Source of the DNA: Sedimentisphaerales bacterium
Lineage (GTDB): Bacteria; Planctomycetota; Phycisphaerae; Sedimentisphaerales; Anaerobacaceae
Direction: 5' to 3'
Length of the DNA: 64,000 nucleotides
NCBI GenBank assembly: GCA_963708075.1
Contig: OY970194.1
Coordinates: 2,464,001-2,528,000, forward strand
Below are positions 34,969 through 51,206 of this stretch, one piece after another. Within the stretch, counting starts at the first letter, position 1. Each line of letters begins with the position of its first letter. A program made the position numbers and the translations under genes. The notes below the pieces were generated by a model that searched no databases, was not told the origin of the DNA, and saw only the letters and a program-made list of their open reading frames with translations.

Positions 34969-35048
34969 GGGTGGCAGCGTCAAGCGCAGCTTGGCGATGG
35001 TTTGCCCATTCGCCATCGCCAAGGCCTTTGGCCTTGACACTGCCACCC
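34969..35048. repeat. REP doublet (REPIN-like, 80 bp) between addA and avtA
   Basis: GGGTGGCAGCGTCAAGCGCAGCTTGGCGATGG-loop-CCATCGCCAAGGCCTTTGGCCTTGACACTGCCACCC. Confidence 0.9.
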
Positions 35049-44336: not shown

Positions 44337-44484
44337 GTCCGATCCGGGAACGCCTTTCGCCTCCATGATATCCCGTGTGCCGGCAAGCACAACCAAATAT
44401 GCACGCCCGTTCACTGCGTTCTCGGGGCGGTGCGGCCGGCCGTCGACGCCGGATTCGGGCCGCGTTGAGGGCCTTTACCGGCGA

Positions 44485-45768
44485 TCAATACGAGCGGGCC
44501 ACGTCATGGTTGTGGTATGCGACCCGCGGCCGAGCCCGCAGCACCACCCCGGCGCCCGCGGCCGGCGTTGGACGTTGGCTTTGTTTCGCACGGCCGTCCC
44601 CGTTCGTAGTGACGCCGCAAGGCGTTTGGCGGGAAGTGTCAAGTGCAGGTCCACCGCTTGACACTTGACACTTCAAACTTGAAACTCCCCCCTGAATTGG
44701 CTTTGTTTCGCACGATGGTTTGTCCTCGGCCGCCGGCCCAGCCTCACGTGACACTTCACACTTCAAACTTGAGACTTCCCCCGATTGGCTTTGTTTCGCA
44801 CGATCCGTTTCACAGGGTAGGCAGTGCCCACCTTCCACCGTCACAGATTGGCTTTGTTTCGTGCAGTCGCTTACGACAGTATGGGTGGCAGCGTCAAGCG
44901 AAGCTTGGCGATGGTCTTCCTGAGGCTCCTCGAATTGGCTTTGTTTCGCGTAATCAGTCTCGCAGGGTGGGCTGTGCCCACTTTCCACCGTCACAGATTG
45001 GCTTTGTTTCGCACAGTCGCTTACGACAGTATGGGTGGCAGCGTCAAGCGAAGCTTGGCGATGGTCTTTCTGAGGCGCCTCAAATTGGCTTTGTTTCGCA
45101 GAATCGCTCGTCCCCTCCCGGGTGGCATCGTCAAGCGCAGGCTTGCCGATGGCGTCAGGATGCAGCCCAACACCATCGGCAAGCTCCGCAGGCTGCGCTT
45201 GCCGCTGCCACCCGTCACTGCCTGACACTTGACACTTCACACTTGAAACTTCTTCCCCTGCTTTTCCCTCCCGCCGGACCTGTCGCAGTTCCTTCATCGT
45301 CCGGTACAGGCTGCTCTCGATCCGCCGCTCATGCATCGATAGCCGGTCGAGGGTCCTTGTCTCGGCGAAGTCGCGTGCGACCGCCCGCCCGAAGGCCAAC
45401 TCGGCCCTGGCCGATGGATCGCGGTTCTCACGGCAGCACTTGACCCAGCCGTCGCCACGATCCGCCTCAAGGAGATAGTCGAGGGCCTCATCCTGCATGC
45501 GTTCGGCCCGTTTGAGCCGCCACCAGAGACCGACGATGCGTTCCGCCATCGCCTCTTCCTCCGGCCCATCCGGAGCCAGCTTCCGGAGCATCCGGCTGCG
45601 GTGCAGCTCGAATTCCTGCGAATCTTCGTTCCTGAGCACGGCCTGGCGGGCCCACAGGCCATGCTTGACGGCGTTCTGCGCCACGACGGCCTTGCCCTCT
45701 GTGGTGCGGGGTCCGGTGGATTTGGCGGCGTTACGACGGTTGGCGGCGACTCGTGCCTGGCTACCCAT
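44485..45768 (-). CDS. Hypothetical protein with NRRNAAKSTGPRTTEGK...NAVKHGL N-terminal motif and repeat-derived C-terminal half
   Basis: RBS GGAGG before MGSQARVAANRRN; helical N-terminal domain of about 170 aa; C-terminus of KQSQ, VSSxKCxVS and HRQASLDAAT units. Confidence 0.75.
   Translation of the reverse strand: MGSQARVAANRRNAAKSTGPRTTEGKAVVAQNAVKHGLWARQAVLRNEDSQEFELHRSRMLRKLAPDGPEEEAMAERIVGLWWRLKRAERMQDEALDYLLEADRGDGWVKCCRENRDPSARAELAFGRAVARDFAETRTLDRLSMHERRIESSLYRTMKELRQVRREGKAGEEVSSVKCQVSGSDGWQRQAQPAELADGVGLHPDAIGKPALDDATREGTSDSAKQSQFEAPQKDHRQASLDAATHTVVSDCAKQSQSVTVESGHSPPCETDYAKQSQFEEPQEDHRQASLDAATHTVVSDCTKQSQSVTVEGGHCLPCETDRAKQSQSGEVSSLKCEVSREAGPAAEDKPSCETKPIQGGVSSLKCQVSSGGPALDTSRQTPCGVTTNGDGRAKQSQRPTPAAGAGVVLRARPRVAYHNHDVARSY
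44575..45100. repeat. Array of seven 16-bp direct repeats TTGGCTTTGTTTCGCA with 47-106 bp spacers
   Basis: Copies start at 44575, 44697, 44785, 44848, 44935, 44998 and 45085; five identical, two differ in the last 1-2 nt. Confidence 0.92.
45120..45213. repeat. REP doublet variant B (94 bp) inside ORF 44485-45768
   Basis: GGGTGGCATCGTCAAGCGCAGGCTTGCCGATGG...CCATCGGCAAGCTCCGCAGGCTGCGCTTGCCGCTGCCACCC. Confidence 0.85.
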
Positions 45769-45786
45769 GGGAAACCTCCGGAATCT

Positions 45787-45814
45787 ATGATTTTTGATGT
45801 TTGATTTTTGATTT
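45787..45814. repeat. Heptamer tandem repeat (TTGATTT)x4 just upstream of the repeat-array gene
   Basis: ATGATTT TTGATGT TTGATTT TTGATTT. Confidence 0.75.
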
Positions 45815-46187
45815 GAACATGGCCGCAGGCCTGCCGGGTGCGCCGGCGCCCGGTGAGACGTGGTCATCAGACCATATACTAAAGACGCTCCAGAGGGCGA
45901 AATGTTTCAGGAATGTTGGTTATATAGTGACATTATACGCAAGCCCTTGTGGCCCAGAGACTTACATCGCCTTATTTTTTGTGCCCAGGACAGAAGGCGG
46001 GCATGCGCCACCCTGCGACGGCGGCGACGAGTGCTCCGAGCGCACCCCTTGGCGCAGCGAATGGCGGTTCTCGTGGCGGTCGAGGGCATCAAAAGAAATG
46101 CATTCAACGCGATCAGAGCATCGCTCAGGGATTCGTCCCGAGTTTGAGTCTCTTGCCGCGGCTGGAGGACAACAACCGGCCGAGGAT

Positions 46188-49481: not shown

Positions 49482-49556
49482 GGTTAACCTTGCCTATGCG
49501 ATCATTCATTGAGAAAAATCGTTGATAACGCATGCACTTTAAGGAGGCACGCAATT

Positions 49557-51206
49557 ATGGCAGCGAAAGAATTGGCGTTTCAAGCGGATGCCCGAGCCAA
49601 GCTGTTAACCGGGGTGGAGAAGCTGGCGGCGGCGGTCAAAGCGACGCTCGGCCCTCGCGGGCGCAATGCCGTCATCGACAAGAGCTGGGGCGGCCCGACT
49701 GTGACCAAGGACGGCGTTACCGTCGCCGATGAGATCGAACTGAAAGACAAGGCGGAGAACCTCGGGGCAAAGCTCGTAAAGCAGGCAGCCAGCAAGACTT
49801 CCAAGGTCGCCGGCGACGGGACAACCACCGCCACCGTGCTGACCGAGGCCCTGTTCAAGGAGGCCTACAAGAACCTGACGGCGGGCGCCGACGCGATGGC
49901 GCTGAAGCGAGGCATGGACGCGGCCGCCAAGGCAGTCACCGATAAGCTCGCCTCGCTGGCAAAGCCGGTGGACATCACCAAGACCAACGATATCGTCAAC
50001 GTGGCGTCCATCTCCGCCAACAACGACCGCGAGATCGGCAAGATTATGGCCGATGCGTTCCAGCGGGTCGGGAAAGACGGCGTGATCACGGTCGAGGAGG
50101 GCAAAAGCTTCGAGACCACCGTCGAGTTCGTCGAGGGCATGCAATTCGACCGCGGGTATCTCTCGCCGCACTTCGTTACCGACCCGGACAAGATGGTCTG
50201 CGAGTTGGAAAGGCCCTTCATCCTCGTGCACGAGGAGAAAATCAGCAATATCGGCAAGCTGATCCCGCTGCTGGAGAAGACGGCCCAGGCGAAGCGGTCG
50301 CTGCTGATCATCGCCGAGGACGTCGAAAGCGAGGCGCTTGCGACGCTGGTTGTCAACAAGCTCAAGGGGATCCTGAAAGTCGCGGCCGTGAAGGCCCCCG
50401 GCTACGGCGACCGCCGAAAGGCCATGCTCCAGGACATCGCCATCCTGACCGGGGCCGAGCCCATCTTCAAGGACCTCGGAATCGAGCTCGACAAGGTCAC
50501 GATTTCGCAACTCGGCCAAGCCCGCAAAATCACCATCGACAACGACAACACGACAATCGTCGAGGGCGCAGGCAGCCAGGAAGCGATCAACGGCCGCATC
50601 AAGCAGATCAAGGACGAGATCGAAACCATCACGAGCGACTACGATCGTGAGAAGCTCCAGGAACGCCTGGCCAAGCTGACCGGCGGCGTCGCCCAGATCA
50701 ACGTCGGGGCCGCCAGCGAGGCGGAGATGAAAGAGAAGAAGGCACGAATCGAAGACGCTCTGCACGCGACCCGTGCGGCAATCGAGGAAGGCATCGTGCC
50801 GGGCGGCGGCGTGGCTTTGATTCGTTGCATGGATGTCGTCAAGTCGTTGAAGCTGCACGGCGACGAGAAGACCGGGGCCGAGATTCTGGTCAAGGCGCTG
50901 CGAACGCCCTGCTACTGGATTGCACAGAACGCCGGCGCAACGGCCAACCTCGTGGTCAATAAAGTGGCCGAGGGCACGGGCGGCTTCGGCTACAACGCGA
51001 ACACGGACACCTACGAGGACCTCGTGGCGGCCGGCGTGATCGATCCGGCGAAAGTGACTCGCATCGCCCTGCAGAACGCTGTGAGCATTGCGGGGCTGCT
51101 GCTGACCACCGACTGCCTGGTCACCGAGAAGCCCAAGCCGAAGGAACAGATGCCCGGCGGCCCGCACGGTCACGGCATGGGCGGCGAAGACATGGACATG
51201 ATGTGA
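49557..51206 (+). CDS. groEL: Chaperonin GroEL (copy 1)
   Basis: [43 protein letters not shown], Gly/Met tail. Confidence 0.98.

Follow-up and report, generated by a model that had tools for sequence, protein, structure and literature searches.

In the window, the stretch of 64,000 nucleotides analysed here, a gene for a helical protein contains an array of direct 16-bp repeats, and gene and repeat motif are linked across phyla. Gene and array form a module that has common ends, empty sites in relatives and gene-less derivatives; the units of repeat plus spacer are shuffled between arrays, the spacer cores match repeats of the host genome, and units bearing such a repeat have been multiplied preferentially. 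We favour, at a probability of roughly 0.4, the reading that the module is a mobile cassette without a transposase, that its protein binds the motif of the module, and that its samples of host repeats serve as handles for recombination or mobilisation; that the protein binds, that arrays recombine and what the cargo is for are proposals of this reading. A large unannotated protein family is thereby presented with a conserved cis motif and mobile modules, which opens the way to a direct binding assay, and within one genus the motif has expanded more than once into dozens of arrays, in which REP, heptamer and palindromic repeats of the host are gathered.

The array locus and the linkage of motif and gene

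The features of the locus are given in Table 1. Seven copies of TTGGCTTTGTTTCGCA (at most three mismatches, five exact) begin at 44575, 44697, 44785, 44848, 44935, 44998 and 45085, separated by spacers of 106, 72, 47, 71, 47 and 71 nt, the number of copies and the spacer lengths being those given in a sequence-only reading of the window, and the rest of the window has no further copy at that threshold. The short repeats described in that reading are also present where it put them, i.e., REP arms at 44883, 45033 and 45120, REP doublets at 34969/35048, 37262/37344, 42501/42590 and 47484/47564, GGTRGGC..GCCCAC hairpins at 44816 and 44966, and a GTAG-led hairpin at 44606. The heptamers near 45787, however, which it had grouped with those of the array, are a different unit (GATTTTT type) and part of the leader of the gene. 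Spacers three to six are one 150-bp tandem duplication, the copies being 90% identical and each made up of a 47-nt spacer with a GGGCAC.GCCCACC REP and a 71-nt spacer with an REP arm of the GGGTGGCAGCGTCAAG family, so that the window array has only four independent spacers. The locus sits between a YbaK-type gene and arfB, and its neighbours (arfB, the YbaK/tRNA-edit gene and a BlaR1/M56 gene) include no cas, transposase or reverse transcriptase gene, as had been noted before. Elsewhere in the window, 49509-51206 encodes by translation what we take to be a GroEL-like chaperonin.

Table 1. Features of the gene-array locus, with positions in the window.
Feature	Position	Strand	Remark
Tail of ~150 nt after the last repeat, conserved; encodes RPRVAYH..ARSY-stop	44429..44574	-	
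Gene, 427 aa: conserved helical domain of ~170 aa plus low-complexity tail encoded by the array	44485..45768	-	
Array, 7 x 16-mer (gene sense TGCGAAACAAAGCCAA) plus 6 spacers	44575..45100	-	
Spacer of 106 nt: heptamer pair plus REP arm, CTAC at the end in gene sense	44591..44696	-	
Spacer of 72 nt: AAGTTTG-type heptamers	44713..44784	-	
150-bp tandem duplication of two units	44777..45076	-	
REP doublet plus heptamers between domain and first repeat, in-frame	45119..45250	.	
N-terminal conserved domain, all-alpha model, long helical hairpin	45250..45768	-	Mean pLDDT 76.8
Residues 3-65, STGP-x-T-x-EGK...NAxKHG module, common to phage genes upstream of large terminases	45574..45762	-	
Leader: AAAAATC-type heptamer run plus GGAGG ribosome-binding site	45775..45817	-	
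Promoter-like TGAAACA-N-CGTC site	45884..45909	-	Pattern picked after viewing sequences
Palindrome of GTAAGTCCTTG-N5-CAAGGACTTAC type	45939..45965	.	

The genome, 7.5 Mb in size, has 126 exact copies of the 16-mer, or 285 if up to two mismatches are allowed. With up to three, 42 arrays account for 285 matches and 59 more stand alone; a refined scan of the arrays raises the count to 294 repeats, with 252 spacers of 16-359 nt between them. Paralogs of the N-terminal domain are found at nine loci (52-100% identical), and at all nine a same-strand array lies directly behind the domain. The 33 gene-less arrays, many of which retain the leader design of palindrome, promoter-like site, heptamer run and ribosome-binding site, would be derivatives without the coding domain and not an independent repeat. 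One paralog (G000:C1:4778158-4780453, G000 being the genome studied here) is frameshifted near codon 80 and its array is split by an opposite-strand gene of 356 codons, probably an IS; this split gives rise to one of the 33. Arrays show no replichore bias (17 leading, 25 lagging), and tRNA-linked islands were rejected as an explanation, 4 of the 42 arrays lying within 8 kb of a tRNA with 10% expected.

Homologs are found in 21 of the 23 genomes of the same genus, with up to 23 matches each. A sample of 80 loci was drawn from GTDB genomes whose records name Planctomycetota, Acidobacteriota, Pseudomonadota, Actinomycetota and other groups. Sequence is sufficient for the comparison at 72 of them, and 63 of these 72 have the core motif in sense orientation within 1 kb downstream of the domain (at least two copies at 41), as opposed to 3 of 68 upstream and 0 of 67 in a far control. 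Together with the arrays behind all nine paralogs this ties the 16-mer to the gene family. Among 41 related genomes, which as kin are not independent, gene and exact motif occur together in 25, the gene alone in one and the motif alone in two, while neither was found in 13, near-complete genomes included. Many relatives have only one or two motifs, and a recurrent minimal form consists of a motif, a spacer of ~74 nt with a TAA-N19-TTA palindrome, and a second motif. Expanded arrays with 190-550 exact motifs arose independently in four other genomes (G005, G007, G013 and G019), following the same design with different cores. Two divergent alphaproteobacterial family members (L098, L100) have a sense motif within 1.2 kb, and five divergent members on viral contigs (L113-L117, IMG/VR) have none within that distance.

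Sorted by the frame in which the first motif copy is read, 256 proteins fall into groups of 116, 100 and 13, and 27 have no copy; at 27 of 64 loci the motif lies past the stop codon. Antisense copies are present at 13 of 72 loci, some homologs have the motif inverted or in antisense only, and short copies stand at ~11-bp spacing in AT-rich relatives. A peptide repeat was discarded since all three frames are used, and so was a hairpin around the repeat, as the 16-mer has no covarying stem; an Rfam search gave one match at chance level (E 0.19). The use of three frames, the copies past the stop codon and in antisense, the ~11-bp spacing and the missing covarying hairpin point to a site at the DNA level, and the 16-bp motif would most likely be the protein's own DNA site. 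The 427-aa frame stays open across the entire array. Read-through without a stop is found at 8 of the 9 gene loci, other frames being mostly closed, an open frame runs through 9 of 32 long arrays where the null expects 2.1 on average (0 of 500 simulations), and an RPRVAYH-like C-terminal peptide ends 7 of 8 intact paralogs and 31 of 256 homologs. Translation through the array therefore seems to be selected in this lineage, and is not universal.

The protein and its phage-like N-terminus

The protein is predicted to be all-helical with a long hairpin, at lower pLDDT for residues 1-40. Family searches in Pfam, NCBIfam and PHROG returned nothing above cut-off, the best match in a sequence-profile search of the PDB had an E of 1.2, and Foldseek gave no match at E <= 0.001. 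Nothing but generic helical hairpins came out of the other fold searches (best Z 7.7, rmsd 3.6, 93 residues aligned). Profile and structure comparison of the N-terminal domain, as proposed in the sequence-only reading, has thus yielded homologs that carry the motif and a helical model with no clear fold match; a missing fold match is not evidence for a new fold. In the ESM Atlas the clusters are unnamed, the nearest named ones being Acidobacteriota proteins with a SEC-C metal-binding motif (0.79-0.80), a weak lead to possible fused forms of the family. A homodimer prediction (score 0.02, mark 0.42) was not counted as evidence. No catalytic motif was seen in the protein, and Pfam and fold searches found no nuclease or Nop-like domain. 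The family comprises 6,509 clusters at 50% identity (E <= 1e-10) or 23,548 (E <= 1e-3), part of the latter probably drawn in via the module shared with terminases.

The likeness to phage proteins is confined to the N-terminus, with hhalign values of 98.7% for residues 16-65 and 99.1% for residues 3-45, and a best E of 0.07 past residue ~65. Viral relatives whose match is limited to the N-terminal motif, and that were chosen by the very motif they share with the protein, often precede ORFs of ~550-630 aa; 6 of the 11 long downstream ORFs tested (one of them 464 aa long) match a PHROG large terminase, and among the upstream genes 4 score on small-terminase profiles as well as on the HGGxSTG domain. 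Searches with tblastn against annotated phages and plasmids gave weak matches only. Small terminases bind nucleic acid, and by analogy residues 3-65 are a putative nucleic-acid-binding module.

It is conceivable, though quite unlikely, that the module is a minimal phage satellite. SaPIs and PICIs provide the model for this: a small-terminase-derived adaptor would redirect the large terminase of a helper phage to the motifs, which would be pac-like sites, the module would be transduced with its flanks, and the repeat samples would offer homology for integration in the recipient. The alignment of residues 3-65 with phage proteins, some of which match TerS and are encoded immediately ahead of PHROG TerL genes, the patchy spread across phyla, the one-sided foreign islets (see below) and the ~11-bp-spaced motifs are in keeping with such a satellite. 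The end of the likeness at residue ~65 and the selection of the viral matches by the same motif speak against it, as do the presence of the array motif near only 2 of the 63 viral loci examined and the absence of integrases from 107 islet ORFs.

Spacers, leader and module ends

Repeat content was assessed in 229 spacers of 30-200 nt, 23 of the 252 having been dropped for length. A 14-mer that occurs at least five times outside arrays is present in 105 of them, as compared with 15% (maximum 18%) of matched intergenic windows. BLAST marked 92 as repeat-bearing against 27-40 in controls, array-adjacent non-coding DNA reaching ~22%, and 81 contained a de novo repeat family (control mean 25, maximum 35), i.e., an approximately threefold excess over other non-coding DNA. 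The claim that every spacer carries a repeat holds for the window array (6 of 6) but not for the genome, where the share is 35-46% of the 229 depending on the test. Similarly, the suggestion that spacers accumulate endogenous repeats is right as to the enrichment and wrong if fresh copies of single loci are meant. Matches to REP, heptamer or palindromic repeats of the host are confined to central cores, which lie a median of 20 nt away from each 16-mer; whole spacers align to the host genome over at least 80% of their length in 4 of 231 cases (75-89% identity), and none was found to be a clean copy of a single host locus. Nor is the sampling broad, in that 15 of 83 repeat families are touched by spacers and 15.3 by random intergenic windows (5-95% range 10-21), with several abundant families absent from the spacers. 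The spacers form 82 clusters, the largest with 39, 37, 23 and 19 of the 229 members, and 8 of the 82 clusters are mostly multi-copy. A family count at random level and so few multi-copy clusters argue that a limited set of repeat-bearing units was multiplied and shuffled. Spacer families are shared among arrays and across genomes, and spacer-spacer matches are on the same strand in 2216 cases and on opposite strands in 25. The spacers are thus inherited, shuffled and polarised units and not CRISPR-type copies of single loci.

The spacer cores largely follow the repeat set of each host, a check that the sequence-only reading had proposed. This was assessed with six motifs, picked because they differed among spacer sets, by comparing genome-wide counts (copies within arrays included) with the number of spacers having the exact motif; for the other four genomes the sets comprised 114, 171, 178 and 121 distinct spacers, sampled from a portion of the arrays. 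In the order G000/G005/G007/G013/G019, five of the six families follow the host repeat set, with genomic counts of 106/1/35/4/13, 1/30/119/201/20, 35/28/248/66/62, 56/2/4/2/0 and 36/0/0/0/0 and spacer counts of 11/0/0/0/0, 0/1/5/10/0, 0/2/7/0/3, 11/0/0/0/0 and 4/0/0/0/0, respectively. The sixth fails (genomes 16/148/11/44/22, spacers 6/0/0/0/0), its 148 copies in G005 having no counterpart in the 114 spacers sampled there.

An unlikely explanation of these arrays is a passive collage, in which the motif is the cis site of an autoregulated gene, REPs and heptamers hop into its unconstrained tail, and slippage and gene conversion multiply the units without any function. This would account for a family richness equal to random expectation, for the evident tandem duplications, for the many relatives with one or two motifs, and for a longer multi-copy element that is inserted in a spacer REP as it is in REP elsewhere. 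It does not predict the threefold excess of repeat-bearing units, the independent expansions of one design with different cores in four genomes, a frame kept open across frameshifting spacers, or the retention of promoters on gene-less arrays. The inserted element, ~290 bp long with TGGTTGTTCTACACAT-type inverted ends and possibly a REP-targeting MITE, lies inside the REP of one spacer at G000:C1:3464847-3465763 (L370) and also within REP at G000:C1 ~4215427.

Upstream of the arrays a promoter-like site in sense orientation precedes all nine gene loci and 17 of the 33 gene-less arrays, with none in antisense and 5% in random non-coding windows, as scored with patterns that are post hoc, the first having been too strict and then loosened after viewing the sequences. 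The TGAAACA-N-CGTC form, presumably an ECF-type promoter, is common to 6 of the 9 gene loci and 10 of the 33 gene-less arrays. Strict polarity extends to the REP arms, which in 833 spacers read hairpin-CTAC 41 times and GTAG-hairpin 7 times, so array RNA would be complementary to the GTAG-tagged strand. It is possible, albeit not the reading we prefer, that the arrays are transcribed as guides or decoys, the protein binding the motif in RNA and the cores pairing with REP or heptamer DNA or RNA. The purpose would be to restrain small mobile repeats or to steer the module beside them, and gene-less arrays would be guides in trans. Put more broadly, a small-terminase-derived protein and motif-delimited units of RNA or ssDNA, with cores complementary to the small mobile repeats of the host, might constitute a programmable repeat-spacer system that targets or restrains these repeats or homes the module beside them, with arrays that update when the repeats of the host change and promoter-bearing orphans acting in trans; this we hold only tentatively. 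The centred cores and the tracking of five of six host families fit such guides as well. Less readily reconciled with them are the length range of the spacers (16-359 nt), the missing covarying repeat structure and Rfam match, the missing nuclease or Nop-like domain, the inverted or antisense-only motifs of some homologs, and spacer flanks that have no single source locus; furthermore, the polarity is explicable by descent from few founder units. The mobile cassette does not require the kept promoters, the strict polarity or the read-through at 8 of 9 loci, which fit a role of RNA or of the protein tail.

The palindrome ahead of the promoter-like site has ~280 genomic sites, mostly intergenic, where nulls give 22-36. 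It is found at most 1.1 kb upstream of 25 of the 42 arrays, inside 18 of the 42 and within 400 bp of 12 of the 50 tRNA/tmRNA genes, and a stricter form is present in 35 of 41 related genomes. Inside arrays it is the oldest spacer, kept by position and without covariation in 95 spacers, a further pointer to the DNA level. It was rejected as a private site of this protein, being present in genomes that have no such gene, and as a cassette boundary (12 within islets, ~9 expected), and would be a site for some other protein. All three core classes resemble sites for other proteins, and the arrays might then be DNA decoys or scaffolds that load, titrate or cluster host DNA-binding proteins (the palindrome binder, a RAYT or heptamer binders) and perhaps organise the nucleoid. 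The abundance of the palindrome and its position near tRNA genes and arrays agree with this, but a few dozen decoys would face hundreds of genomic copies, and 13 of the 41 related genomes, near-complete ones among them, yielded neither gene nor motif. We consider a decoy or scaffold very unlikely.

Gene and array together span ~1.5 kb and have common ends at unrelated sites; neither this mobile module nor the likeness of the N-terminus to phage small terminases had been noticed in the sequence-only reading. The left end, ~200 nt before the ATG, is common to five recent copies and the right end, ~150 nt after the last repeat, to seven loci, with unrelated flanks in both cases; in the window the ends lie near 45981 and 44429, respectively. 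No terminal inverted repeat or target duplication was seen by eye, no transposase family matched the module, and no circularly permuted copy, as expected from entry by a single crossover, was seen. The module is missing before arfB in all 20 relatives compared (two with <200 nt of upstream sequence), and in 7 of them ybaK ends ~100 nt before arfB. There is no recurrent partner gene among 492 neighbouring ORFs of the 80 loci. Upstream of the gene-less arrays, a gap of >1.3 kb devoid of typical host genes is found in 24 of 33 (background 11%); downstream, none of the 33 has a gap of >1 kb, and upstream GC is lower in 27 of 33. Twenty of these islets, taken from the largest, comprise 107 ORFs with genes for R-M, HEPN-MNT, SIR2/STAND, GIY-YIG and IS and no integrase. 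Individual islets (L374, L375, L376, L378) have an Eco57I-type methylase; a HEPN-MNT pair; an nSTAND3 NTPase; and a SIR2-like gene near a STAND NTPase with an IS between. Another (L369:324-2573), upstream of a gene-less array, has four tandem paralogous small ORFs of 126-229 aa without Pfam match.

The mobile cassette, as we picture it, would be made up of a host-type palindrome, a promoter, the gene for the helical protein with its small-terminase-like N-terminus, and one to many 16-bp motifs. The protein would oligomerise on the motifs and pair arrays, leading to recombination and gene conversion between them. Units with a captured host repeat may be retained for one of two reasons. First, the repeat would provide homology to hundreds of safe intergenic sites. 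Second, it could be a site for host enzymes acting in trans, such as RAYT-type HUH transposases (the genome has 13 Y1_Tnp matches) or a palindrome-binding protein. The cassette would thus spread by hitch-hiking on the repeat machinery of the host, and foreign defence-type genes would collect on its upstream side. The random-level family richness, the small share of spacer clusters that are mostly multi-copy, the 22% repeat content of array-adjacent non-coding DNA, the one family that fails host tracking, the end of the terminase likeness at residue ~65 and the failure to see a catalytic motif, terminal inverted repeats, target duplications or circularly permuted copies count against the cassette. 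If the repeat samples are handles for mobility, they would let the module move in the absence of a transposase and might account for the places at which small defence islets arise; if the spacers are guides, the design would be a new RNA-guided one aimed at self repeats. Either reading offers a handle on the role of REP and heptamer repeats.

Comparison with known systems

Phage small terminases have pac-site repeats in or near their own gene. The module resembles them in the STGP..EGK..NAxKHG motif, the helical hairpin and a motif repeated within its own gene. It differs in that the likeness covers ~60 residues only, with no score on NF041373 (HGGxSTG) or TerS profiles, and in being chromosomal, next to arfB and ybaK, with no terminase partner and no conserved neighbour at 80 loci. 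Unlike an integron, it has no tyrosine integrase among the 107 islet ORFs, nor is the palindrome enriched there beyond the counts given above. As to insertion sequences and MITEs, the module has defined ends and empty sites, but no terminal inverted repeat or target duplication was visible by eye and no transposase family matched. The spacer cores are heptamer repeats and REPs of the GTAG family, known from REPINs with RAYT and from BIME mosaics, and the host has the 13 Y1_Tnp matches given above. Here, however, these repeats are cargo, mostly single arms in a single polarity, while the 16-mer that delimits the units is no REP and the linked protein, without a Y1_Tnp match, is not a HUH enzyme. 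GTAG REPs are known in Planctomycetes, according to a published account (PMC3733652).

CRISPR loci have in common with these arrays a constant direct repeat, variable spacers, a leader with promoter, and orphan arrays. The spacers here are 16-359 nt long and shared as families, their cores are self-derived only, and the array lies within an ORF; no precise protospacer was found in the host genome, where only cores match, and the genome, 92.8% complete, has no match to Cas1 (PF01867). In TIGR-Tas, too, one small gene stands beside an array of 5-15 units without an acquisition enzyme at the locus (PMC12045711). TIGR arrays have alternating edge and loop repeats, or stem-loops, around two spacers of 8-12 nt, whereas there is one repeat type here with long variable spacers, no such alternation, no box C/D motifs and no fixed unit length. 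The Nop domain has no Pfam match in the protein, and a TasH chain ranked 29th in the fold search (Z 6.8, 69 residues) amid generic helical hairpins.

In the literature searched, which took in only a minority of subscription papers, no description of this gene-array system was found, which agrees with the view that a protein-plus-array locus of this kind, its motif accompanying the homologs, is apparently undescribed. The closest known layout is that of the neisserial NIME arrays of dRS3 and RS elements. According to a published account (PMC1797815), these are long and dynamic arrays of a constant short repeat with spacer families of ~50-150 bp, proposed as recombinase sites that promote exchange of neighbouring genes. 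A constant repeat and spacer families reused among arrays, here in 82 clusters, are features of both. As given there, dRS3 is a 20-bp inverted repeat (ATTCCC-N8-GGGAAT), whereas TGCGAAACAAAGCCAA is non-palindromic and direct, and the account's sections on dRS3 and RS mention no cis-linked gene, promoter or module ends and do not present RS as samples of other host repeats (PMC1797815). The gene-array system is thus apparently new in its architecture, with the mechanism set out above as a proposal.
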